Source of the DNA: an uncultured Clostridia bacterium
GTDB taxonomy: Bacteria; Bacillota; Clostridia; Christensenellales; CAMQZB01
Assembly: GCA_947039455.1 (NCBI GenBank)
Contig: CAMQZB010000001.1
Location: 79,877 to 143,876, forward strand
Length of the DNA: 64,000 nucleotides
Reading direction: 5' to 3'
Shown: positions 3,464 through 63,460 of the stretch, one piece after another
Numbering within the stretch: the first letter of the stretch is position 1
Layout of the letters: each line of letters starts with the position of its first letter
Position numbers and translations under genes: made by a program
The notes under the pieces: generated by a model
Seen by the model: the letters and a program-made list of their open reading frames with translations, nothing else
What the model was told of the DNA's origin: nothing
The model's database searches: none

Positions 3464-5854
3464 ATGAGGAATAAAGAGATAATAGATTTATTGACCATTG
3501 ACGAAAAAATACGCTTATTAAACGGCGATGGCAGTTGGTTTACGAATAATTGCAATGGCAAATTGCCAACAATTATGATGAGTGACGGACCACACGGCTT
3601 GAGAAAGCAAGAAGTGGAGAATTATGCTGATTTAAACAACAGCGAAATCGCAACTTGCTATCCAACAGCAAGCGCAATAGCGTCAAGTTGGGATATAAAC
3701 GTAGCTAGCAAATTAGCTGAAGCCATCGCTGACGAAGCGTTGAAAGAGAAAGTCTCAATCGTTCTTGGCTGTGGAATAAATATTAAAAGAAACCCGCTAT
3801 GTGGAAGGAATTTCGAGTATTTTTCAGAAGACCCATATCTTACAGGCGAGCTTGCGACAGCATACATAAAAGCCATGGAAAGTAAAGGAGTAGGCACATC
3901 TTTAAAGCACTTTGCTTGCAATAATCAAGAAAAAAGAAGACAAACTCAAAACTCAAAAATAGACGAAAGAGCTTTGCATGAAATATATCTAAAAGCCTTT
4001 GAAACAGTAGTTAAAAACGCACAGCCAACAACAATTATGTCATCATATAACAGACTAAACGGTGAGTATGTAGGAAGAAATAAAGGGTTGTTGACTGATT
4101 TGCTAAGAGAAAAATGGGGCTTTAAAGGGTTGATAGTATCAGATTGGGGCGCAGCACTTGACATCGTGGCATGTATAAAAGCTGGAATGGATATTGAAAT
4201 GCCTGATTCATTTGGGCAACATACGTTAGAACTAAAAACAGCCTATGATAATGGCGAAATAACACTTCAGGAAATTGATCGAGCAGTAGAAAACGTGGTT
4301 GCAATGGTGGTAAATCAAAGCAAAAAAATAATTGATTCAAAAGTTGATTATGACGTACAACATAACATTGCAAAAGAGCTTGAATGCCAGTCAGCAGTAT
4401 TACTTAAAAATGTAGAAAAAATATTACCAGTTGATAAAAATAAAAAGATTTTAGTAATAGGAAATATGGCCACGGAAATGCGATTTCAAGGTGGCGGAAG
4501 TTCACATATTACAACAGTAAAAACCAAAAACGCATTAGAAAGTTTAACTGAGATTTATGAGAATATTGACTATGCAAAAGGCTATTTAGAGGATAGCACA
4601 AATAGTAAATTGCAAGGGGAAGCTGTTGAAAAAGCTAAAACAGCCGATGTGGTACTTTTCTTTGGTGGATTATCTGATAAATATGAAGGTGAAGGGTATG
4701 ATAGAGCAACTTTGAGTATCCCACCATGCCAAACTGAGCTTTTAGATAAAGTATCAGAGGTGAATGATAATATAGTTTTCGTATCTTTTGGTGGTTCACC
4801 AATTGAGATGAAATTTATAAACAATGTTAAAGGCATTTTGCAAATGTATTTAGGCGGTCAAGGGGTTGGCGAAGCCTGTGGATTGCTAATTTCAGGAGCA
4901 AGAAACCCAAGTGGAAAGCTAGCTGAAACATATCCAATAAATATAAACGACGTACCATCAACAAAGACTTTCGGAAAGGAAACTGCAAACGTGGAATACC
5001 GTGAAAGCATCTTTGTTGGCTATCGATATTTTGACACATTCAAGATACCAACATTATTTGATTTTGGTTTCGGTTTATCATATACAAATTTTGAATATAC
5101 TAACCTTGTGCTGTCAACAAATACTTATAAAAACGGCAACTTAGAAGTTATGTTTGATGTAGCAAATACAGGTGAAGTAAATGGAGCTGAAGTAGCGGAA
5201 GTATACATAAAAAACCCAGAAGGAAAATATATGAGAGCAAGCCGAGAACTTGCAGGGTTTGTGAAAATAAAGTTAGACAGCAAAGAGAAAAAAACTACAA
5301 CAGTTACAGTAAATGAACGTAGTTTTAGCATATATAATGAAGAAAAAGCTGACTTTCAAATTGCATCTGGAACGTATCAAATCATGGTGGGTTCATCGCT
5401 AAGCGATATACGATTGGAAGCAACTGTTGAAGTTTTGGGGGAAGAAATCACACTTGATCAAACTATGGAATTTTCTGAGTATTTCAATTCGGAATTAAAG
5501 ATAACAAGTGAAAAATTCAATAGTTTACTAAAGAATAAAAACCAAAGGAATTTCGATAAAATACCAAGAGGCGGTTATACAAAATACAATTCTATGAACG
5601 AGCTAGCGAAAGCTTCACTACTTGTAAAAATCGTGAAATTTGTATTGAAAAAAGTGGTGTATGGCATGAACAAAGACAAGTTAAAAACCGATCCAGCGGT
5701 TACCATGATCGTAACAGGAATGCAAGAAGGACCACTTGATTCCGTGCTAACAGCAAGCGAAGGAGCAGTGCCGTATTTCCTAGCGGAAGCCATGGTGCTG
5801 TCAGCAAATAAAAAACATATGAAAGCAATTGGCAAGTTAATAAAAAGAAAATAG
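3464..5854 (+). CDS. glycoside hydrolase family 3 (BglX-like beta-glucosidase/exo-glycosidase)
   Basis: 796 aa with GH3 N-domain motifs (MSDGPHGLRKQ, KHFACNNQE, IVSDWGA nucleophile Asp region), a C-domain and an Fn3-like domain. An extra ~110-aa basic C-terminal tail follows. Confidence 0.9.
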   Translation: MRNKEIIDLLTIDEKIRLLNGDGSWFTNNCNGKLPTIMMSDGPHGLRKQEVENYADLNNSEIATCYPTASAIASSWDINVASKLAEAIADEALKEKVSIVLGCGINIKRNPLCGRNFEYFSEDPYLTGELATAYIKAMESKGVGTSLKHFACNNQEKRRQTQNSKIDERALHEIYLKAFETVVKNAQPTTIMSSYNRLNGEYVGRNKGLLTDLLREKWGFKGLIVSDWGAALDIVACIKAGMDIEMPDSFGQHTLELKTAYDNGEITLQEIDRAVENVVAMVVNQSKKIIDSKVDYDVQHNIAKELECQSAVLLKNVEKILPVDKNKKILVIGNMATEMRFQGGGSSHITTVKTKNALESLTEIYENIDYAKGYLEDSTNSKLQGEAVEKAKTADVVLFFGGLSDKYEGEGYDRATLSIPPCQTELLDKVSEVNDNIVFVSFGGSPIEMKFINNVKGILQMYLGGQGVGEACGLLISGARNPSGKLAETYPININDVPSTKTFGKETANVEYRESIFVGYRYFDTFKIPTLFDFGFGLSYTNFEYTNLVLSTNTYKNGNLEVMFDVANTGEVNGAEVAEVYIKNPEGKYMRASRELAGFVKIKLDSKEKKTTTVTVNERSFSIYNEEKADFQIASGTYQIMVGSSLSDIRLEATVEVLGEEITLDQTMEFSEYFNSELKITSEKFNSLLKNKNQRNFDKIPRGGYTKYNSMNELAKASLLVKIVKFVLKKVVYGMNKDKLKTDPAVTMIVTGMQEGPLDSVLTASEGAVPYFLAEAMVLSANKKHMKAIGKLIKRK

Positions 5855-5865
5855 AGGATATAAAT

Positions 5866-7395
5866 ATGAAAATCATGAAAATTATAGATGCAATATTATT
5901 TTGGGTAAGTTTAGCAGTATTAATATTAGGAATAGGGTTGTTTTTAGTAATAAATAATGCTATAATAAATAATCAAGTAGTATTGATGACCTGCCTAGCA
6001 TTGGGATTAGCAGGAGGAATAGCAAGTAGATTATTGCTAGGAAAAAGCGTAAATAAGAATAAAAAATTATTTCTAATAATCGCAAGTGTAGTGCTATTAG
6101 CAACAACAGCTTTGAGTATTTACATAATCCTACAAACAGCAATTATTAACTTTTGGCAACCTGTATCATTATCAATGTCAATAACAGTAGTACTAATCAC
6201 AGGCATAGTTTTGCAATTAATATCAGCAGTTTACACTCTAATATTTCAAAGCGACAGCAAAAAAATAGTAGGTGTTTTCGTAGTAATATTATCATTTTAT
6301 GTGTCATTGTCAGGGTTCGCATTTTTGCAAAACATGAACGAGTTTGAGAATGTAGAAACATCATTTGCGTTGTTTGAGAACGGAGAAGCGGACTATACCA
6401 CATTCAGAATTCCGTCATTAATATCAATGGACAAAGACAGTATCAACGAAATCTACGGATATGAAATGGAGCATGATGTACTTCTAGCAACAGCGGAAGG
6501 ACGCAAAAATTCTTTCCATGATAGAGGTGAAATTGATATAGTAGGAAAAGTTTCAACAGATAATGGAGAAACTTGGAGTGAAGTAATGGTGTTGTTTGAA
6601 GTGGCAGGAGAAGTAGGAAAATACGGAAATCCTACGCCAGTTTACGACAGTGAAACAGGGTTAATAAATTTTCTTTGCATGACAGGCGTTGAATCAAACA
6701 ATTACAAATATTCAACATATAATATCAGATGCGAAATTAATGAAGATTTCTCAATAACAGAAACAGACAGAATTAACTTAAACGATCAACTAAATATAGA
6801 AGCAGGGGAATCAGTAGCAACAAACGCAAATAGTCTAATGATCGGCCCTGGAAAATCAATACAATTAGAAAGCGGAAGATTGATAGCACCAGCAAGTCAA
6901 AAGAATATAAGTTTTGCGATTTATAGTGATGACAATGGGCTAACATGGACAAGAAGTGGCGACTTTGGAGCTGGTAATGAGAATGAAGTGGTAGAGTTAT
7001 CAAAGGGAGAATTGATGATGGTAGCACGTGAAACAACTCCATGCGACACTACACATAATGAGCAGTACCAACGTTTTGCATACTCAAGTGACCAAGGGGA
7101 AACATGGGTACAAGCTAAAGAAAGTGAGTTAAAAACACCAGTATGTATGGCATCGCTAGCAGGGTTTGAGGATACAGTATATTTCTCATATCCTGACGAT
7201 TTCCTAACTAGAGGTAACTTGACAGTAGCAGTGTCAAAAGATAATGGAGATACATTTGATAAATTATCAATCTATCAAGGAGCAGCGGGATATTCATGTA
7301 TTGAAACAAACGGAAATGGAGATGTGTTCTTGCTATCAGAAGTGGGAGCGGTGAATTATTGTGAGCAATTAGTCTTTGCAAAAATCAAAGCGTAA
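5866..7395 (+). CDS. GH33 exo-alpha-sialidase-like protein with N-terminal 5-TM membrane domain
   Basis: About 160 aa with five hydrophobic helices, then an FRIP motif (YTTFRIPSL) and four Asp boxes (STDNGETW, SDDNGLTW, SSDQGETW, SKDNGDTF). A GYSCIE Tyr-nucleophile-like motif is also present. Confidence 0.8.
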   Translation: MKIMKIIDAILFWVSLAVLILGIGLFLVINNAIINNQVVLMTCLALGLAGGIASRLLLGKSVNKNKKLFLIIASVVLLATTALSIYIILQTAIINFWQPVSLSMSITVVLITGIVLQLISAVYTLIFQSDSKKIVGVFVVILSFYVSLSGFAFLQNMNEFENVETSFALFENGEADYTTFRIPSLISMDKDSINEIYGYEMEHDVLLATAEGRKNSFHDRGEIDIVGKVSTDNGETWSEVMVLFEVAGEVGKYGNPTPVYDSETGLINFLCMTGVESNNYKYSTYNIRCEINEDFSITETDRINLNDQLNIEAGESVATNANSLMIGPGKSIQLESGRLIAPASQKNISFAIYSDDNGLTWTRSGDFGAGNENEVVELSKGELMMVARETTPCDTTHNEQYQRFAYSSDQGETWVQAKESELKTPVCMASLAGFEDTVYFSYPDDFLTRGNLTVAVSKDNGDTFDKLSIYQGAAGYSCIETNGNGDVFLLSEVGAVNYCEQLVFAKIKA

Positions 7396-11253: not shown

Positions 11254-11273
11254 AATAAGGCACTAATGTGTGG

Positions 11274-11349
11274 GGGAGCTTAGCTCAGTTGGGAGAGCAT
11301 CTGCCTTACAAGCAGAGGGTCACAGGTTCGAGCCCTGTAGCTCCCACCA
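11274..11349 (+). tRNA. tRNA-Val (anticodon UAC), copy 1
   Basis: Cloverleaf folded by hand: acceptor gggagct/agctccc, anticodon stem tctgc/gcaga, loop cTTACAa, T-loop ttcgagc, encoded CCA. Confidence 0.9.
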
Positions 11350-11392
11350 TTATCGTGCAACAACTTAATACAAAATTAAATTAATTTGGTGA

Positions 11393-11468
11393 GGGAGCTT
11401 AGCTCAGTTGGGAGAGCATCTGCCTTACAAGCAGAGGGTCACAGGTTCGAGCCCTGTAGCTCCCACCA
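11393..11468 (+). tRNA. tRNA-Val (UAC), copy 2
   Basis: Identical to copy 1, offset by 119 nt. Confidence 0.9.
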
Positions 11469-11511
11469 TTATCGTGCAACAACTTAATACAAAATTAAAT
11501 TAATTTGGTGA

Positions 11512-11587
11512 GGGAGCTTAGCTCAGTTGGGAGAGCATCTGCCTTACAAGCAGAGGGTCACAGGTTCGAGCCCTGTAGCTCCCACCA
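11512..11587 (+). tRNA. tRNA-Val (UAC), copy 3
   Basis: Identical to copy 1, offset by 238 nt. Confidence 0.9.
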
Positions 11588-11606
11588 TTATTTAATTTTG
11601 AATTAT

Positions 11607-11681
11607 GCGGGAGTGGCTCAGTGGTAGAGCGTCGCCTTGCCAAGGCGAATGTCGCGGGTCCGAATCCCGTCTCCCGCTCCA
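11607..11681 (+). tRNA. tRNA-Gly (anticodon GCC)
   Basis: Acceptor gcgggag/ctcccgc, anticodon stem tcgcc/ggcga, loop tTGCCaa, encoded CCA. The T-loop reads TCCGAAT (C at the usual U55 position). Confidence 0.85.
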
Positions 11682-35917: not shown

Positions 35918-36000
35918 ATAATAATAATAGTAATAATATTGAATTAAATACCCAACTACTCACCCAACAACACAGCAACAAAAATCACCATACATAAAGC

Positions 36001-36050
36001 GGGTCAAGGGGCTCGCCCCTTGTTGGGGCATGGGGCAAACAGCCCCATTT
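36001..36050 (+). repeat. GC-rich twin-hairpin core, copy A
   Basis: gggtCAAGGGGCtcGCCCCTTGttggggcaTGGGGCaaacaGCCCCAttt. It differs from copy B only at two loop positions. Confidence 0.85.
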
Positions 36051-36084
36051 TATAACGAACCAACCAAACCAAACTAAACAAAAA

Positions 36085-40082: not shown

Positions 40083-41135
40083 ATGATAGGAAGAACTAAT
40101 GCAACATCAGGCTCGCCCATGAAAATAGGTGAAGTCACAATCAAAGATAAATTAGCTGATGGCTCATTCACAGTATGTGATGGAAGAACAGTTTTTTCAA
40201 TAACTGAAGAGTTGGTAGTCAATGGGTTAGAACCGTTCTTTGACAGTAAGAATTATATATCCAGTTGGACAGCTGGAACAAATGTATTTGATGATATAAT
40301 TACAACTATAGTCTACAGAAATGGGTTGTGGGTTATAGTTGGTAATAGTGGAAAAATATCAACAAGCATTGACGGATTAAATTGGACAGCCCGAACAAGT
40401 GGGGATACCATAACAATTAGAGCAGTAGCCTACGGAAATGGGTTGTGGATTATGGTTGGTTATAGTGGAAAAATAGCAACAAGCAGTAACGGAATAAATT
40501 GGACAGCCCGAACAAGTGGATTTAAAACTAATATGTTCGCAGTAGCCTACGGAAATGGGTTGTGGGTTGCAGTTGGTGATGGCGGACTGCTAATTACAAG
40601 CACTAACGGAATAAATTGGACAGTTCGAACAAGTTTCGTCAATACAGCAATTATTGCAGTAGCCTACGAAAATGGGCTGTGGGTTACTGTTGGTTGTAAC
40701 GATGCCTCGTCAACTAGCAACAATGGAATAAATTGGAGTACTCATTCAACAACTCTTAATCAAATAATGAACGGAGTAGTCTACCGAAATGGCTTATGGA
40801 TTTTAGTTGGTTGTAGTGGAGATCTAGTAACAAGCACTAACGGAACGAATTGGACGGAGCGAAAAAGTGGGTTTACTAAAGATGAAAACATTAACACTGT
40901 TGATTATGGCAATGGCTTTTGGGTTGCAGCAGGTGAAAATGGCATAATGTCTTCTAGCAAAGATGGAATAAATTGGTTGAGAGGTTCCATCGGTGGTGGT
41001 ACTGTTAACTCAATAATCTATGAAAATGAATCATGGATGGCAGTAGGCGAAAGTGGAAGGATATTAACTGCTGAGCTTGTTACTGAAATAACACTTCCAA
41101 ACTACAAAACACCAACATATATCAAATATAAATAA
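40083..41135 (+). CDS. seven-bladed Asp-box-like beta-propeller repeat protein
   Basis: Seven ~39-aa repeats of the form (A/V)YxNGLWVxVGxxGxIxTSxNGINWTxRTSG. Confidence 0.75.
   Translation: MIGRTNATSGSPMKIGEVTIKDKLADGSFTVCDGRTVFSITEELVVNGLEPFFDSKNYISSWTAGTNVFDDIITTIVYRNGLWVIVGNSGKISTSIDGLNWTARTSGDTITIRAVAYGNGLWIMVGYSGKIATSSNGINWTARTSGFKTNMFAVAYGNGLWVAVGDGGLLITSTNGINWTVRTSFVNTAIIAVAYENGLWVTVGCNDASSTSNNGINWSTHSTTLNQIMNGVVYRNGLWILVGCSGDLVTSTNGTNWTERKSGFTKDENINTVDYGNGFWVAAGENGIMSSSKDGINWLRGSIGGGTVNSIIYENESWMAVGESGRILTAELVTEITLPNYKTPTYIKYK
40296..41073 (+). repeat. intragenic ~117-nt tandem repeats (7 units)
   Basis: aattggacagcccgaacaagtgg occurs at 40379 and 40496. gcagtagcctacggaaatgggttgtgg occurs at 40422 and 40539. 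Both pairs are offset by exactly 117 nt. Confidence 0.85.
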
Positions 41136-47892: not shown

Positions 47893-48312
47893 TTGAGAGA
47901 AGCGAAGATTACAATAAAAACTAAAGACGATTTCAATGAAACCGAGATAATATTATACGGAGAAAGCTGGACCGAAGGTGACACGCAGTTTTTAGTGTAT
48001 GTTGACAAGTCGCAAGAAGACAAAACCAACAAAACGGTGATTGCATTTGACGATAATTCTCTATCCTATCAAAAATACGGCAAGTACAATATGGAGTTAA
48101 ATTTTGAAATAAACAATAAGTTAAATTTCCCGCTAGAAACGGAGTATGGAACAATGGCGGTGGAGCTTTCCACAAAGAAATTAGTAATTGAAAGAACAGA
48201 AAAAGGTGCAAATATAGATATAGATTACACCCTGATATTTTCAGAAACACAAGGTGTAAATTACAGTATAAATATAGAATTCAAGTATGTTTTAAGTAAG
48301 GAGATGATATGA
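47893..48312 (+). CDS. DUF1934-like (YwiB-like) beta-barrel protein
   Basis: 139 aa, TTG start after RBS aggag. The sequence pattern is compatible with DUF1934. Its stop overlaps the rho-like start (ATGA). Confidence 0.55.
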   Translation: MREAKITIKTKDDFNETEIILYGESWTEGDTQFLVYVDKSQEDKTNKTVIAFDDNSLSYQKYGKYNMELNFEINNKLNFPLETEYGTMAVELSTKKLVIERTEKGANIDIDYTLIFSETQGVNYSINIEFKYVLSKEMI

Positions 48313-49832
48313 TTGATCAAAAATTAGATGAAGGGGCAAAGCACTATCAAGATATACGAAAATTGTTTGATAATTATATAATCACTGAAGAAAATTTGAA
48401 AGTAATGACGATTTATAACCTACGAGCATTGGCATTTGGAGCAAAAATACAAGCTGCAGTAACAATGAAAAAAGAAGTAGTAATTGATGCGTTGCTTGAG
48501 TTCGGAAAAGGAAATACAGCGGTCTACATTCCAAGTACAAAGAAAGGAAAACCGCCTGAAATGGGCTCTAATTTTTATCCTGCCATAGAGCGTTTAAAGG
48601 AAAAAAATCAGTTAATTCCTATTAAAAAAGTAAACGTAAACGATATATTGAGTGATAGCGTTGGTGGATTTACCAATGATATTTTTCAAGAAACAAAAGA
48701 CGGAGAAAGTATAATCGAGGGTGGAATTTTAGAGATAATGCCTGATGATTTTGGATATTTACGTGGTGGAAATTACGGCTCAAAATACAGTGAAATATAC
48801 GTTTCTTCTAACATAATTAATAACCTTTTCATAAGAAATGGTGATTATGTAAAAGGTGAAGTAATTAAAAATGCAAACAACAAAGACTGTTTGAAAAACG
48901 TAATAGAAGTAAACGGAAAACCAGTAACTGATTGCTATAATCGATTAAATTTTGAAGATTTAGTTGCAGTTTTCCCTAAAGAAAAATTTCAATTATCTAG
49001 TGAAGAAAACAATGAAATGGAGTTAAGATTAATTGATTTATTTTGTCCAATAGGAAAAGGGCAACGTGGAATAATCGCAACACCTCCAAAAACTGACCCA
49101 ACAACGATTTTAAAAAGCGTATCAAAAGCTATGGTGCAAAACAATAGCAACGTGAAAGTTTTGATGTTGTTAATAGGTCAACGCCCAGAAGAAGTAACGG
49201 ACATCAAAGAATCGGTTGACGCGGAAGTGTTTTTTACAACATTTGACGATGTATGTGAGGAACAAATAGCGGTGGCGGAAACGGTTTTATCACATGGAAA
49301 ACGCCTTGTAGAAAGCGGTTATGACGTGGTAATTATGATAGACAGCATCACAAAATTAGTGAAAGCGTATAATAATGTATCATATACTTCAAGCCGAACT
49401 ATGAATGGTGAGCTTGAAGTGAATGCACTTGAAGTACCGAAAAAATTCTTTGGTTCAGCTAGAAACATCAAAAACCAAGGCAGTTTTACAATTCTTGCCA
49501 CAGCGGAAGTTGAAACGGGAAACCGAATGGACGATATGATTTACCATGAATTTATTGCGTCAGGAAATATGGAATTGCGACTTGATAGAACCTTAGCTGA
49601 AAATAGAATTTTCCCAAGCATAAATTGCGAAAAATCCTATACAATGAAAGACGATTTATTGTTAACAAAAGAGCAGTTAGACGTACAGTATTCTATTAGA
49701 AAAACATTCACATCACAAACTATCCTAGATGACACCATTTTATTAATAGACATGGTTGGAAAAACAAAAACAAACCATGAATTTATAGAAAAGTACCCAT
49801 CTTTAGTAAAGATTAAAAGCCACAACAACTAA
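48309..49832 (+). CDS. rho: Rho-family protein with degenerate ATPase motifs
   Basis: Rho_N-like helices, a CSD-like RNA-binding domain (DFGYLRG, EIYVS) and a RecA-type domain (VVIMIDSITKLVKAYN, NALEVPKKFFGSARN, GNMELRLDR). The P-loop reads TPPKTDPT instead of APPKAGKT. Confidence 0.85.
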   Translation: MIDQKLDEGAKHYQDIRKLFDNYIITEENLKVMTIYNLRALAFGAKIQAAVTMKKEVVIDALLEFGKGNTAVYIPSTKKGKPPEMGSNFYPAIERLKEKNQLIPIKKVNVNDILSDSVGGFTNDIFQETKDGESIIEGGILEIMPDDFGYLRGGNYGSKYSEIYVSSNIINNLFIRNGDYVKGEVIKNANNKDCLKNVIEVNGKPVTDCYNRLNFEDLVAVFPKEKFQLSSEENNEMELRLIDLFCPIGKGQRGIIATPPKTDPTTILKSVSKAMVQNNSNVKVLMLLIGQRPEEVTDIKESVDAEVFFTTFDDVCEEQIAVAETVLSHGKRLVESGYDVVIMIDSITKLVKAYNNVSYTSSRTMNGELEVNALEVPKKFFGSARNIKNQGSFTILATAEVETGNRMDDMIYHEFIASGNMELRLDRTLAENRIFPSINCEKSYTMKDDLLLTKEQLDVQYSIRKTFTSQTILDDTILLIDMVGKTKTNHEFIEKYPSLVKIKSHNN

Positions 49833-49876
49833 AATTCAAAAACCTAAAAAAGACCCAAAAAACACTAAAATAGCAA

Positions 49877-49929
49877 AAAACCGTTATTTACGATTGACTT
49901 AAATTCAATCAAAATAACGGTTTTTTTTA
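49877..49929 (+). terminator. rho-like gene terminator
   Basis: Stem aaaccgttattt/aaataacggttt followed by a T-run. Confidence 0.7.
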
Positions 49930-52916: not shown

Positions 52917-52948
52917 AAGGGCAGTCACAAAGTGATTGCCCCTTTTTC
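52917..52948 (+). terminator. rho-independent terminator
   Basis: Stem gggcagtcac/gtgattgccc followed by TTTTT. Confidence 0.8.
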
Positions 52949-53113
52949 CACTAATAAAGTATAAAACACAAAAAAAGTGCAATAATTAACCTATATAAGA
53001 CAAAGACGGCGGAACAAATCAAAACACAAAATAAAACACCCACCAAAAATTATCCCCATAACCAAACCCAACTCAAACCACAACCCAACAAAAAACACTT
53101 AGAACAAAAAAGA

Positions 53114-53164
53114 GGGTCAAGGGGCTCAGCCCCTTGTTGGGGCATGGGGCAAATAGCCCCATTT
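53114..53164 (+). repeat. GC-rich twin-hairpin core, copy B
   Basis: gggtCAAGGGGCtcaGCCCCTTGttggggcaTGGGGCaaataGCCCCAttt. Confidence 0.85.
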
Positions 53165-53218
53165 AACTCACCTAAAAAAATCCAAAACCCCCCAGAACTT
53201 ACCTAAAAAACAAAAACA

Positions 53219-53252
53219 CAAAAAAAAGGCTAGTTCATAAAGAACTAACCTT
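53219..53252 (-). terminator. fba terminator
   Basis: On the minus strand: aggttagttc/gaactagcct stem followed by an 8-T run. Confidence 0.8.
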
Positions 53253-53277: not shown

Positions 53278-54207
53278 TTAAGCTTTGCCTGCACAACCTA
53301 GAACGTTGATAAGTTTGTGTGAAACGATATCAGTGATAGCGCTACGAGCAGGAGAAAGATATTGTCTAGGATCGAAGTGTGAAGGATTTTCGCTCATATA
53401 CTTTCTGATATTACCAGTGAAAGCAACACGAAGATCTGAATCGATGTTGATTTTACAAACTGACATAGCAGCAGCACGTCTAAGCAATTCTTCAGGAACG
53501 CCTTGAGCACCTGGCATAGCACCGCCGAATTCGTTAATCATTTTAACTAAGTCTTGAGGAACTGATGAAGCACCGTGAAGAACGATAGGGAAGTTAGGAA
53601 GCAATCTGCCAACTTCTTCTAAAATATCGAAACGAAGTTTAGGAGTAGATTGGAACTTGAAAGCACCGTGACTAGTACCGATAGCAATAGCAAGAGAATC
53701 AACGCCAGTTTTAGCAACGAATTCTTGAACTTCTTCAGGTCTAGTATAAGCTGAATCTTCAGAAGAAACATCAACTTCATCTTCAACGCCAGCAAGTCTT
53801 CCAAGCTCAGCTTCAACAACAACGCCTCTGTCATGAGCATATTCAACTACACGTTTAGTAGTAGCGATATTTTCAGCAAAAGAGTGGTGAGAACCGTCGA
53901 TCATAACTGAAGTGAATCCACTGTCAATACATGATTTACAAGTTTCAAAAGTGTCACCATGGTCAAGATGAAGAACAATTGGAAGACCTGAATCTTCAAC
54001 AGCAGCTTCAACTAATTTTTTCAAGTAAGTAGGGTTAGCGTATTTTCTAGCACCTGCTGAAACTTGAAGAATAAGTGGTGCGTTGTTAGCTTTACCAGCC
54101 TCAACGATACCTTGAATGATTTCCATGTTGTTAACGTTAAAAGCTCCGATAGCATAACCGCCAGCATAAGCTTTAGCAAACATTTCCGTAGTAGTAACTA
54201 ATGGCAT
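53278..54207 (-). CDS. fba: class II fructose-1,6-bisphosphate aldolase
   Basis: GGYAIGAFNVNN, VLHLDHG and GTSHGAFKF motifs. The ATG at 54207 follows RBS ggagg. Confidence 0.95.
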   Translation of the reverse strand: MPLVTTTEMFAKAYAGGYAIGAFNVNNMEIIQGIVEAGKANNAPLILQVSAGARKYANPTYLKKLVEAAVEDSGLPIVLHLDHGDTFETCKSCIDSGFTSVMIDGSHHSFAENIATTKRVVEYAHDRGVVVEAELGRLAGVEDEVDVSSEDSAYTRPEEVQEFVAKTGVDSLAIAIGTSHGAFKFQSTPKLRFDILEEVGRLLPNFPIVLHGASSVPQDLVKMINEFGGAMPGAQGVPEELLRRAAAMSVCKINIDSDLRVAFTGNIRKYMSENPSHFDPRQYLSPARSAITDIVSHKLINVLGCAGKA

Positions 54208-54430
54208 AGTGAATTCCTCCATAAAATCTAATAAAGACATTATAACACACTTATAGAAAAAATCAAATAAGAAATGGCAAAGGTTGTGAAAAAAATCACA
54301 AATAATAAAATATAATTAACACGAAACCTATTGAAATTATTGTAATAATATGGTACAATAATAAACAATATGAAGTCTATATGGAAAATATAGGCAATAA
54401 AAAGAAAATATAGTATAAGGAGCGAGAAAA

Positions 54431-57754: not shown

Positions 57755-57785
57755 AAGAACCTATCGCAAGATAGGTTCTTTTTTA
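57755..57785 (+). terminator. gap terminator
   Basis: 11-bp stem aagaacctatc/gataggttctt followed by TTTT. Confidence 0.85.
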
Positions 57786-57830
57786 CGCAAAAATTCAAAG
57801 AAAAACAAACAAACTTACCCAACCCCAACC

Positions 57831-58005
57831 CCAATCAACCCACAAATAAACCACCAAACACAATCCCAACCAACTCACAAATAAACCACCAAACACAATC
57901 CCAACCAACTCACAAATAAACCACCAAACACAACCCCAACCAACCCACAAATAAAACAACCAATACAACTCCAACCAACCCACAAATAAAACAACCAATA
58001 CAACT
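57831..58005 (+). repeat. 35-nt tandem repeat, 5 full units (a sixth, degenerate unit follows)
   Basis: Unit ccaaccaa(c/t)(c/t)cacaaataaa(c/a)ca(c/a)c(c/a)aa(c/t)acaa(t/c)(c/t)c. Units 2/3 are nearly identical and units 4/5 are identical. Confidence 0.9.
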
Positions 58006-58150
58006 CCAACCAATCCACAAAAAAAATATCAAACCCAAATAGGAACCAACACCCATACTAAAACTACACCCAAAACCAATTAAGAAACGTTTCCACCCAA
58101 AGTGGAAACCAACCCATCCAAATGAAAACCTCACCATAAGTAAACCCAAC

Positions 58151-58206
58151 GGGGTCTTGGGGTATCACCCCAAGTGGTTGGGGTCTGGGGAGTCCCAAAT
58201 TCCCAG
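58151..58206 (+). repeat. GC-rich twin-hairpin core, diverged copy C
   Basis: ggggtCTTGGGGTatcACCCCAAGtggttggggtcTGGGgagtCCCAaattccca has the same architecture as copies A and B. Confidence 0.6.
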
Positions 58207-58447
58207 TGGTTTTGCAACTTTTGCCACCCAAAAGTTGACCGCGTGCGGAACACAAAAACCAAGTTGAAAAACATACATCTTACAACTTAATTAAATCCCC
58301 CCAACCAAACCACTAAAAAAAAAACTACCAAACCAATCCAACCACTAAAAAAACAAAAAAAACTATTTTAACCAAAATAAAGGAAATACTAATAAACATA
58401 GCGTATAATTTATATGAAGGCTAGTTTTGAATTTTGGAGAAAACCAT

Positions 58448-61272: not shown

Positions 61273-62331
61273 ATGGGAAATGAATTCGTAGAAAATTTGA
61301 AGAAAGAGCTAGTGGAAACCTACCGAAAAGTAGGTGCAATCACGTCAGAGGAATTATTTGATAAACTTGAAAAGCATCAAATAACACCTGAAGAATTGGA
61401 GGGCATTTATAAAGCCCTTGAAGAGAACCGAATTAGAATTACTGACATAGATTTGTCCGAAAAACAGATGCATGATATTGAAACAATGTCAACAACTGCC
61501 TCAATGGACGACCCTGTGAAAATGTATCTAAAAGACATTGGTTCAATTCCGCTATTAACTTTTGAAGAAGAAGTAGAGCTGTCAAAACGTATGCTTGAAG
61601 GGGATGAGATTGCTAAAAAAGCATTGTCGGAGTCCAATTTGAGATTAGTGGTATCGATAGCAAAAAGGTATTTAGGGCGTGGTATGCAATTTTTGGATTT
61701 AATCCAAGAAGGCAATCTAGGTCTGATGAAAGCTGTAGAAAAATTCGATTATACAAAAGGATTTAAGTTCAGCACCTATGCAACATGGTGGATTAGGCAA
61801 TCAATAACACGTTCAATTGCCGACCAAGCAAGAACAATCAGAATACCAGTCCACATGGTAGAAACTATCAACAGACAAGCGAAAGCGATACGTTCATTAC
61901 TGCAAGATTTAGGCAGAGAACCAACAATTTATGAAATCGCCGAGAGATTAAATGTGTCGGTGGAAAAAGTGTTGGAAATCAAAAAAATATCCCTTGACCC
62001 AATATCATTAGAAACGCCAATCGGCACAGAAGATGATACGCATTTAGGCGATTTTATCGAAGACGACACAGCAAAAGATCCGTCAGTAGCAATTACTTCG
62101 GAAACATTGCGTGACGAATTTAATAGAGTACTTGGAACATTGACTCCAAGAGAAGAAAAAGTAATTAGATTAAGATACGGACTTGACGACGGCAAGCCAA
62201 AAACTTTAGAGGAAGTAGGACGAGCGTTCAACGTGACACGTGAGCGGATACGTCAAATAGAATCGAAAGCTTTACGAAAACTTCGTCACCCAAGTCGCAA
62301 TCAAAAACTAAGCGAATTGGGAATGAAATAG
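61273..62331 (+). CDS. sigA: group-1 RNA polymerase sigma-70 factor, copy 1
   Basis: Regions 1.2 ([11 protein letters not shown]), 2 ([30 protein letters not shown]), 3 and 4.2 ([21 protein letters not shown]). Confidence 0.9.
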
Positions 62332-62371
62332 ATAATAATTATAAATTAACATAAAGGAAGAGATACGATTA

Positions 62372-63460
62372 ATGAGTGTAGAAAACGTAGATGTAGCCAA
62401 ACTAGAAGGGGTAATAGCCCTTGTAGAAGAAGGTAAAAAGAGTGGAACGATTAAGTCTGAAGAGATATTTGATCGACTGGAAAAAGTTGAATTGTCACCT
62501 GATAAATTGGACGAGATATATGCAATATTCGAAGAAAACGGCATAAAAATCATTGATAATATAGACATGATCAAACAGGTAGCAGCTGAACCTGCACCGA
62601 ATGCGTCATTCGAGTTATACAACGATGACCTAGGAATGAATGACCCTGTAAAATTGTATTTAAAAGACATAGGAAAAGTACAATTACTATCAGCAGAAAG
62701 AGAAGTAGACCTAGCGAAACGTATGCTTGATGGCGACGACATGGCGAAACAAATACTAGCAGAAGCCAACTTGCGTTTGGTAGTGTCAATTGCAAAAAGG
62801 TATGTTGGACGTGGCTTGATGTTACTTGATTTAATACAAGAAGGCAACATGGGTTTGATGAAAGCAATCGAGAAATTCGACTATACAAAAGGCTTCAAAT
62901 TCAGTACATACGCAACATGGTGGATAAGACAATCAATCACAAGAGCGATAGCCGATCAAGCAAGAACAATCCGTGTACCAGTTCACATGGTAGAAACAAT
63001 TAACAGAAAAACAAGAGCAACAAGAGTGCTTTTGCAAAAACTTGGACGTGAACCTACAATGGAAGAAATAGCTGAAGAAATGGGTGTATCAGTGGAAAAA
63101 GTGTTTGAAATCCAAAGAATAGCACTTGATCCAGTATCATTAGAAACGCCAATCGGCGAAGAAGACGATACTCACTTAGGTGATTTTATCGAAGACGAAA
63201 ACGCTATTGCCCCAACAACTCAAGTAGCAAATTCATTGTTAAAAGAGAAGTTGATAAACGTGTTATCATCATTGACACCACGTGAAGAAAAGGTAATAAG
63301 ATTAAGATACGGACTTGACGATGGAAAGCCAAAAACATTGGAAGAAGTGGGCAAGGAGTTTAACGTAACACGAGAGAGAATTAGACAAATCGAAGCAAAA
63401 GCTTTGAGAAAATTACGTCATCCAAAAAGAAGCACGCAAATTAAGGACTTTATTGACTAA
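62372..63460 (+). CDS. group-1-like RNA polymerase sigma-70 factor, copy 2 (tandem paralogue)
   Basis: Same region structure as copy 1. The DNA-recognition helices are the same apart from S/A substitutions ([32 protein letters not shown]). The N-terminus and region 3 have diverged. Confidence 0.9.

Follow-up and report, generated by a model that had tools for sequence, protein, structure and literature searches.

A single-strand origin (sso) is a lagging-strand origin that turns the DNA of rolling-circle plasmids from the single-stranded into the double-stranded form in an orientation-dependent way. Origins of the ssoT type, as in the rolling-circle plasmids pBAA1, pTA1060, pTA1040 and pTX14-2, and sso1 of ICEBs1 share a common plan at their 3' end: a hairpin, a GGG(G)TT linker and a second hairpin of the form TGGG(G)C-loop-GCCC(C)A. 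Here, we analyse a stretch of 64,000 nt (the window) from the chromosome of an uncultured Clostridia bacterium, in which a first-pass annotation made from the letters alone had noticed three copies of a GC-rich twin hairpin. Each copy carries a conserved module of ~55 nt (the core), flanked by A/C-rich DNA (the arms), and the whole core can be aligned with the terminal ~50 nt of these origins, in the same polarity as the strand quoted for the functional sso. In contrast to the plasmid origins, the window copies are without the other ~150 nt, including the stem-loop catalogued as RF01691, and they are chromosomal, with no rep, mob or oriT (origin of transfer) nearby and with flanks of A and C only.

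Three other described systems bear comparison. The module resembles the repetitive extragenic palindromes (REP) and bacterial interspersed mosaic elements (BIME) in having short, imperfect hairpins that are rich in GC and carry a conserved motif at their 5' foot, and in its dispersal between genes, mainly at gene 3' ends, as multiple non-coding copies of mixed orientation. However, its units stand in tandem direct orientation and not as inverted pairs, its foot is GGGT(C) and not GTAG, no REP-associated tyrosine transposase (RAYT) was found in the window or near 132 loci of the wider family among the matches listed, and it is conserved across genomes of 37-71% GC, whereas classical REPs are species-specific. 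The arms recall Rho utilization (rut) sites, being C-rich, nearly G-free and structure-free over 90-240 nt on one strand in an organism that encodes Rho, but rut sites are defined on transcripts, copy A lies on the non-transcribed strand, and rut sites have no counterpart to the conserved hairpin module. Finally, RF01691, a Bacillus-plasmid RNA, belongs to the same plasmid region, ~100 nt upstream of the module in p4192, but it is a distinct stem-loop without a match in the window.

The core belongs to a large, very widespread and structurally constrained family that includes the ssoT 3' end. The first-pass annotation had named a match to a known repeat or RNA family as grounds against its reading, and such a match came about only in part: the core does match the end of the already known ssoT origins, whereas we found no published description, and no Rfam model, of the terminal module as a separate, dispersed chromosomal repeat. 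Our tentative reading, held with somewhat less than even confidence, is that the window carries a dispersed hairpin element resembling REPs or miniature inverted-repeat transposable elements (MITE), which shares the plasmid sso module or derives from it and is probably active as folded single-stranded DNA.

Match to plasmid single-strand origins

When phage and plasmid records were searched with the core by blastn, its motif turned up in small Bacillus rolling-circle plasmids, as well as in ~14 human-gut scaffolds labelled 'Bacteriophage sp.'. A covariance model, R1, was built from ten sequences, none of them from the window: seven gut scaffolds, pTX14-2, p4192 and a Desulfobaculum plasmid. 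Run on the 64-kb window with filters off, R1 recovered the three copies and nothing else, each at full length (model positions 1-56 of 56) and on the + strand only, with copy B at 39.7 bits (E 2.5e-9), copy A at 36.4 bits (E 2.2e-8) and copy C at 24.0 bits (E 6.6e-5). Each of the three loci holds a copy of one small intergenic element, which is non-coding and strand-specific and has the ~55-nt module as its conserved part.

R1 also matches the end of the pTA1060 sso (L123 303-353, equal to record positions 6502-6552; 20.6 bits, E ~1e-3), for which the published span is 6349-6549 (PMC4595007). The module of pTA1040 stops at record position 5307, where the sso itself is published to end (PMC4595007). 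At the published coordinates (PMC4595007), the last ~50 nt of both origins consist of a hairpin, a GGGTTT linker and a TGGGC-loop-GCCCA hairpin, and this 3'-terminal hairpin-linker-hairpin is present in the window copies, where the sequence upstream of each core is made of A and C only. In pTX14-2 and p4192 the module, as GGGGTCAAGGGG-loop-CCCCTTGTGGGGTTTGGGGCAAAGCCCC, lies ~200 nt upstream of mobV, and in pBMB0228, GGGGGTCAAGGGG is part of a primer located within the 370-bp 'oriT2' region (PMC4902927). In the Bacillus rolling-circle plasmids, the module makes up the 3' end of ssoT, and the oriT/mobV module follows a short way downstream. That it holds this place in four different plasmids suggests that it is built into the origin and is no random insertion.

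The earlier statement that the core falls into no recognised Rfam family holds: at gathering thresholds the window gives six tRNAs only, and at permissive thresholds (E up to 10, around copies B and C) there is terminator-like noise only. Among the gut and plasmid loci, Rfam returned only RF01691 and ToxI, both elsewhere in the plasmids, and nothing at the gut loci. As a separate observation, the RF01691 motif, catalogued as a candidate RNA, at L121 210-265 and L123 ~155-200 coincides with a stem-loop inside the published ssoT, and for this reason the RF01691 stem-loop may act as single-stranded DNA and not as RNA.

Layout of the three copies

All three copies lie on the + strand, at the places first reported (Table 1), and follow one order: a 5' GGGTC, hairpin 1, a G-tract linker ((T)GGGG plus 2-3 nt) and hairpin 2 (TGGGGC-loop-GCCCCA), with 3-4 T directly after hairpin 2 in copies A and B. 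Just as first described, these two cores differ only in the loop of hairpin 1 (CTCG vs CTCAG, one added base) and in a transition in the loop of hairpin 2 (AAACA/AAATA). Copy C had been presented as a diverged copy of the same layout. The twin-hairpin arrangement is indeed there, and hairpin 1 (CTTGGGGT/ACCCCAAG) carries three compensatory pair changes relative to the CAAGGGGC/GCCCCTTG of A and B, but hairpin 2 is weakened in the window by a 1-nt deletion. In the module, hairpin 1 varies freely in sequence while its pairing is kept.

In the 64-kb window the motif TTGGGGYNTGGGG occurs 3 times against 0.07 expected, and the longer core pattern 3 times against 0.00 expected. As with REP-type repeats, the copies are imperfect palindromes, three in 64 kb, and every one is intergenic.

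Conserved pairing and the four G-tracts

Among 20 aligned members of the family, 98.7% of the cells pair and 8 of the 12 pairs have changed on both sides, figures to be read with the alignment's own leaning towards pairing, because it was fitted to the model. This level of pairing was reached by none of 500 shuffles, and it falls to 36-65% when the 3' partners are slid by 1-3 columns. Both hairpins are maintained by compensatory changes, in keeping with the selection on structure that had been suggested from differences confined to loops.

Under DNA parameters, the twin hairpin is the minimum-energy and centroid fold of copy A (-14.5 kcal/mol, z -2.8) and the best and centroid fold of copy B (-16.7 kcal/mol, z -3.75). 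Under RNA parameters, an alternative with three small hairpins is about equally stable, and the stability of the fold exceeds that of shuffled sequence (z -2.2 to -3.1).

The first-pass annotation had also drawn attention to four G-tracts in each core and to a G-quadruplex that would exclude the hairpin. Such a switch, in which four + strand tracts fold into a quadruplex competing with the hairpins and thereby regulate replication or transcription, can point to the four G3-4 tracts of all three window copies, and to the tracts that most family members among the matches listed carry as GGGTCAAGGGG and GGGGNNNGGGG pairs. However, two of the four tracts sit in stems with covarying partners, the long loop would need to contain the C-strand of hairpin 1, and hairpin 1 persists without its G-tract in pTA1060 (CCAACGG/CCGTTGG), in the scaffold L119 (CCAGAGG/CCTCTGG) and in pTA1040. 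Because these homologues keep hairpin 1 and lose its G-tract, it is the pairing and not the four-tract layout that is conserved. The idea of a conserved switch found no support in this comparison, and we regard it as extremely improbable.

A dispersed family without a linked enzyme

The pattern GGGTCAAGGGG-N3-9-CCCCTTG-N1-2-GGGG has matches in at least 120 loci of metagenomes and in 16 viral contigs or loci; what we say of this family here and below holds among the matches listed. The contigs range from 37 to 71% GC and their record names include human-gut metagenome assemblies. Many loci are arrays of 2-3 hairpin units, each with GGGT(C/G) before it, and several copies may share a contig, with three on L241, two on L235 and three places on MT838343. 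On gut scaffolds the module stands between housekeeping genes (RuvC, YidC/Jag, cysteine synthase). The position favours gene 3' ends in mixed orientation: of 75 cases, 48 have a co-oriented upstream gene and 27 a divergent one. A GGTTTT or GGTCTT often comes after hairpin 2. A replication-strand bias was rejected, since the GC skew of the contigs is positive in 33 and negative in 36. Two other searches were uninformative: the exact CCCCTTGTTGGGGCATGGGG has 0 matches in the metagenome and viral collections, and the degenerate CCCCWWGN{0,3}TTGGGGYNTGGGG has at least 106 in genome contigs, which are chance matches in GC-rich genomes.

Clustering of the genes beside 132 loci gave no recurrent neighbour, and a relaxase, Rep, integrase or transposase linked to the module was rejected. 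In the window, the open reading frames (ORFs) of at least 140 aa at 1-33 kb and the main ORFs at 33-64 kb yielded no transposase, integrase, relaxase or Rep, and the earlier observation of no terminal inverted repeats and no adjacent transposase stands. The rolling-circle replicon or conjugative element, with adjoining rep, mob or oriT, in which an ssoT origin resides has no trace here, as no mobile-element genes were found among these ORFs of the 64 kb.

This distribution brings to mind a purely selfish REP/MITE-like repeat, in which an HUH (histidine-hydrophobic-histidine) enzyme acting in trans, such as a RAYT-like Y1 transposase, a relaxase or a Rep, would use the module as its recognition hairpin. 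The enzyme would copy the module around genomes, the sso/oriT copies of plasmids would be mere further insertions, and there would be no host function. Dispersal in multiple intergenic copies of mixed orientation, with no linked gene and with presence or absence between relatives, agrees with this, as do the tandem arrays of 2-3 hairpin units and the conserved 5' GGGT(C) foot at each hairpin, which recalls the GTAG plus hairpin of the REP layout. Against it, no Y1 transposase, relaxase or Rep was found in the window or near the 132 loci, element ends and target duplications were not seen, and the module holds the same place, the sso 3' end, in four different Bacillus plasmids. We consider a purely selfish repeat unlikely.

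Two side observations concern the members of the family. At L165 2362-2485, and also in L218 and L241, two modules diverge from a shared centre of ~40 nt (GGCTTGACGG...CTGTCAGACCGCG); each is then followed by GGTTTTA.TCTTTTGACC, and together they form a larger inverted unit. In L114-L119 and L127-L131 (MT836735-MT839842, 'UNVERIFIED: Bacteriophage sp.'), a repeat of ~270 nt lies amid bacterial genes, which on those scaffolds include RuvC, an FGGY kinase, YidC/Jag, cysteine synthase and a GH31 hydrolase. These scaffolds look like fragments of a GC-rich bacterial chromosome and not like phage genomes, so the GenBank label of those that carry the element calls for caution in annotation.

A/C-only arms and transcription context

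Summed over 804 nt, the arms are composed of A 0.52, C 0.31, G 0.044 and T 0.12, against 0.39/0.16/0.19/0.26 for the window overall; those of copy A have A 0.51-0.62, C 0.26-0.27 and G 0.03. The + strand flanks are A+C-rich and almost G-free at all three copies, as had been reported. The 89-nt run without G beside copy B (53013-53101) is real, and longer ones flank copy C (57801-58041, 241 nt; 58267-58381, 115 nt). In the 64-kb window, stretches of 40-80 nt in which A+C reaches 90% or more are confined to places beside the cores, and no G+T-rich counterpart tracts were found on the + strand. C-rich single-stranded motifs such as CCCC and CCCAAC are plentiful in the arms. Homology among the arms of A, B and C was rejected, as they cannot be aligned, and the elements differ widely in length, with ~150 nt in A, ~220 nt in B and ~600 nt in C. 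A milder A/C-rich stretch lies at 49814-49882, between the rho stop codon and its terminator.

The A/C-rich flank is not, however, a property of the family as a whole. Long G-free flanks number 6 vs 4 of 141 instances, and the family flanks are slightly enriched in A+C (0.54 and 0.52 vs 0.50, p 7.5e-10 and 7e-4). The sole strong parallel among the 141 is L166 280-410 (Ga0154020_10019362, a metagenome contig of 55% GC), where the module is followed at once by (AAAACCCAAACC)x7, seven C-containing units of 12 nt that make up 84 nt within a G-free run of 100 nt. The A/C-only arms are specific to the window lineage, with this one independent parallel, and appear to be undescribed in the literature.

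How the copies stand relative to transcripts differs from one to the next. Copy A lies antisense inside the 3' untranslated region of leuS, and since the leuS terminator (35916-35897, - strand) lies beyond the element, the copy is inside a transcription unit. Around copy B, the convergent terminators noticed earlier are present (52919-52941 with a T-run on the + strand, 53253-53225 on the - strand), and the copy lies between them, outside both neighbouring transcripts. Copy C is likewise outside both units, with the gap terminator (57757-57785) on one side and the promoter region of dgt-dnaG-rpoD on the other. No sigma-70-like promoter was found on the + strand upstream of copies A, B and C. 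The possibility that the copies serve as intrinsic terminators on the - strand was rejected, a usable T-run being present at copy B only.

The main rival to a single-stranded DNA element is an insulator or Rho-dependent terminator at the RNA level, in which the arms would be rut sites on + strand read-through or antisense RNA and the GC hairpins would be pause sites or barriers to 3' exonucleases. The genome has a Rho gene, and the arms, as tracts of 90-240 nt, are free of structure and show an extreme excess of C over G. Copies B and C come directly after intrinsic terminators of + strand genes, a place where a back-up would protect the convergent fba and dgt-dnaG-rpoD, respectively. Moreover, the module of L166 precedes seven C-containing repeats, and in the family the GGTTTT or GGTCTT after hairpin 2 and the predominantly co-oriented upstream gene agree with a role in RNA. 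A rut site calls for at least ~70 nt of unstructured, C-rich and G-poor sequence on the transcribed strand, in the presence of Rho. The composition of the arms and the presence of Rho agree with this, and the transcribed strand is plausible for B and C but fails for A. Indeed, the expected transcript at copy A is the leuS 3' untranslated region on the - strand, and since it lies on that strand the RNA would be G/U-rich. The upstream gene is divergent in the remaining 27 of 75 cases, and the sequence of the module is conserved over contigs of 37-71% GC and in plasmid sso regions, unlike that of ordinary terminators. In addition, nearly all family members are without A/C arms, so this explanation cannot account for the conserved module. 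We consider it fairly unlikely.

Independent small RNA genes could also be imagined, with A/C-rich transcripts that carry C motifs, end in the twin hairpin and pair with G-rich ribosome-binding sites. The CCCC and CCCAAC motifs of the arms, the T residues after hairpin 2 in copies A and B and the RNA fold that beats shuffled sequence all agree with such genes. Yet a promoter-like site on the + strand was not found upstream of the copies, the element lengths are disparate and the arms not alignable, Rfam has no match, and the elements are missing at the B and C sites of a close relative (see below). Small RNA genes are very improbable in our view. Like the selfish repeat and the quadruplex switch, they are less well supported than either the single-stranded DNA element or the Rho-dependent terminator.

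Variation among strains and absence from a close relative

Sister strains were available as metagenome sequences from ENA (L107, L110, L111 and L112). The core of copy A is identical in L110 and L111, where the arms vary, and that of copy B is identical in L107, where the arms carry indels; for both copies, the arm differences between sister strains are small indels and substitutions. In copy C, 141 nt of the tandem array in the 5' arm are missing from L112, and the number of 35-nt units in this arm varies among strains. Hairpin 2 of copy C is intact in L112 (TGGGG-AAT-CCCCA), with an R1 score of 26.2 bits. The ~7.5 kb that L112 adds beyond the window hold no further copies.

The close relative L109, whose fba is 95% identical and whose gene order is the same, has no element at the orthologous B site, downstream of fba, or at the C site. 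There, its gap-dgt spacer is 265 nt of unrelated sequence, with homology resuming near a conserved GCGTATAAT box. Presence in one and absence in the other, together with the changes in the arms among strains, indicate that the elements turn over quickly. Two other fba homologues, L125 and L126, have a different gene order and no element, and L108 (P0003), reached through its fba homologue, was rejected as a relative, as it belongs to an unrelated GC-rich genome.

A proposed folded single-stranded DNA signal

We tentatively propose that the module acts as a signal by folding into hairpins wherever the + strand is present as single-stranded nucleic acid, most probably DNA, in the manner of an sso. 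Action as single-stranded DNA, like any role in priming or loading, would follow by analogy with the plasmid origins; we counted in its favour that no + strand promoter was found and that copy A is antisense to the sole transcript expected there. The chromosomal copies would be REP/MITE-like: geneless, landing between genes mostly at their 3' ends, and gained or lost between close relatives. The arms, being unable to pair with themselves, may keep the hairpins flanked by an obligately unstructured strand. It is tempting to speculate that they are a lineage-specific elaboration, possibly born of slippage beside stable hairpins; such an origin may hold because CCCCAA is both the 3' arm of the C-type hairpin and the complement of the TTGGGG linker. 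Alternatively, the arms may be selected for their inability to pair.

Several results weigh against this proposal. The other stem-loops of ssoT, including RF01691, are missing from the window copies, which are not complete ssoT origins; for RF01691, the window has no match, even when E values up to 10 are allowed near copies B and C. Mutagenesis of the pBAA1 sso by Seery and Devine in 1993 reportedly found three stem-loops to be needed, which may or may not include the two hairpins of the module. The even split of GC skew in the family speaks against a role linked to the lagging-strand template of the chromosome, and the same orientation of all three copies in the window could be chance. The preference of the family for gene 3' ends and the GGTTTT or GGTCTT tails are compatible with a role as RNA. 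Signs of mobility are missing, in that neither target-site duplications nor element ends nor an enzyme for mobilisation could be identified. Finally, the leaning of the covariation alignment towards pairing, noted above, must be set against the strength of the structural evidence.

A more ambitious idea is that the twin hairpin and its same-strand A/C tracts form an unrecognised chromosomal site of single-strand initiation or loading, that is, a plasmid origin module domesticated for chromosome maintenance. RNA polymerase, primase or a PriA-type loader would recognise the hairpins on exposed single-stranded DNA, and the A/C tract would be an obligately naked landing pad. Under this idea, the tract that follows the module in L166, from an unrelated organism, would be convergent evidence for a functional pairing of module and tract. 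We find such a domesticated site improbable.

Should the module be a dispersed sso-derived element, the terminal module of a classical plasmid lagging-strand origin would be among the most widely scattered small hairpin repeats of bacterial chromosomes, plasmids and viral contigs, and plasmid single-strand origins would become connected with REP-like genome repeats. The ~55-nt model would be a handle for detecting sso-like signals in integrative and conjugative elements. Moreover, the arms (~800 nt with 4% G) pose the question of whether non-pairing sequence is selected beside single-strand signals or serves as a loading site for Rho.

Feature coordinates and other observations in the window

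Table 1. Positions of the hairpin elements and their parts in the 64,000-nt window
Feature	Position	Strand	Details
Copy A core	35995..36052	+	GGGTC 36001-36005; hairpin 1 36005-36022; G-tract linker 36023-36030; hairpin 2 36031-36047
Copy B core	53108..53166	+	GGGTC 53114-53118; hairpin 1 53118-53136; linker 53137-53144; hairpin 2 53145-53161
Copy C core	58146..58210	+	GGGGTC 58151-58156; hairpin 1 58156-58174; linker 58175-58185; hairpin 2 58186-58197
Copy A whole element (arms and core)	35931..36084	+	leuS stop codon (36085, - strand) on one side, leuS terminator on the other
Copy B whole element	53005..53224	+	A/C-rich arms 53005-53113 and 53162-53224; convergent intrinsic terminators on both sides
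Copy C whole element, ~600 nt, A/C-rich	57783..58385	+	between the gap terminator and the dgt-dnaG-rpoD promoter region
35-nt A/C-only tandem repeat, ~7 units	57784..58063	+	5' arm of copy C; found by repeat search
Extra local hairpins in the copy C element	58089-58109 and ~58218-58240		

The window comes from a low-GC (~35%) chromosome of a spore-forming member of the Clostridia, and its gene products include SpoIIR, YpeB, a SleB-like hydrolase, LeuRS, an aldolase, GAPDH and Rho, along with the dgt-dnaG-rpoD operon. The cumulative GC skew climbs steadily across the window, so the + strand has the composition of a leading strand. Rho, with its Rho_RNA_bind and ATPase domains, is encoded at 48309-49832, and the homologue (48309-49882 region) has an N-terminal extension of ~135 aa.

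Other features were noted in passing. The aldolase ORF at 53278-54240, listed with 320 aa, is probably 11 codons too long, as its close homologues have 309 aa. A 350-aa ORF at 40083-41135, without a Pfam match, contains five tandem repeats of 117 nt (39 aa) with 60-82% identity. Three tandem tRNA-Val(TAC) genes in repeat units of 119 nt, followed by tRNA-Gly(GCC), occupy 11270-11681. After dnaG come two neighbouring sigma-70 (RpoD-type) genes at 61273-63460, both full-length (352 and 362 aa); their DNA is 74-79% identical over parts, and strains L112 and L113 have the pair as well.

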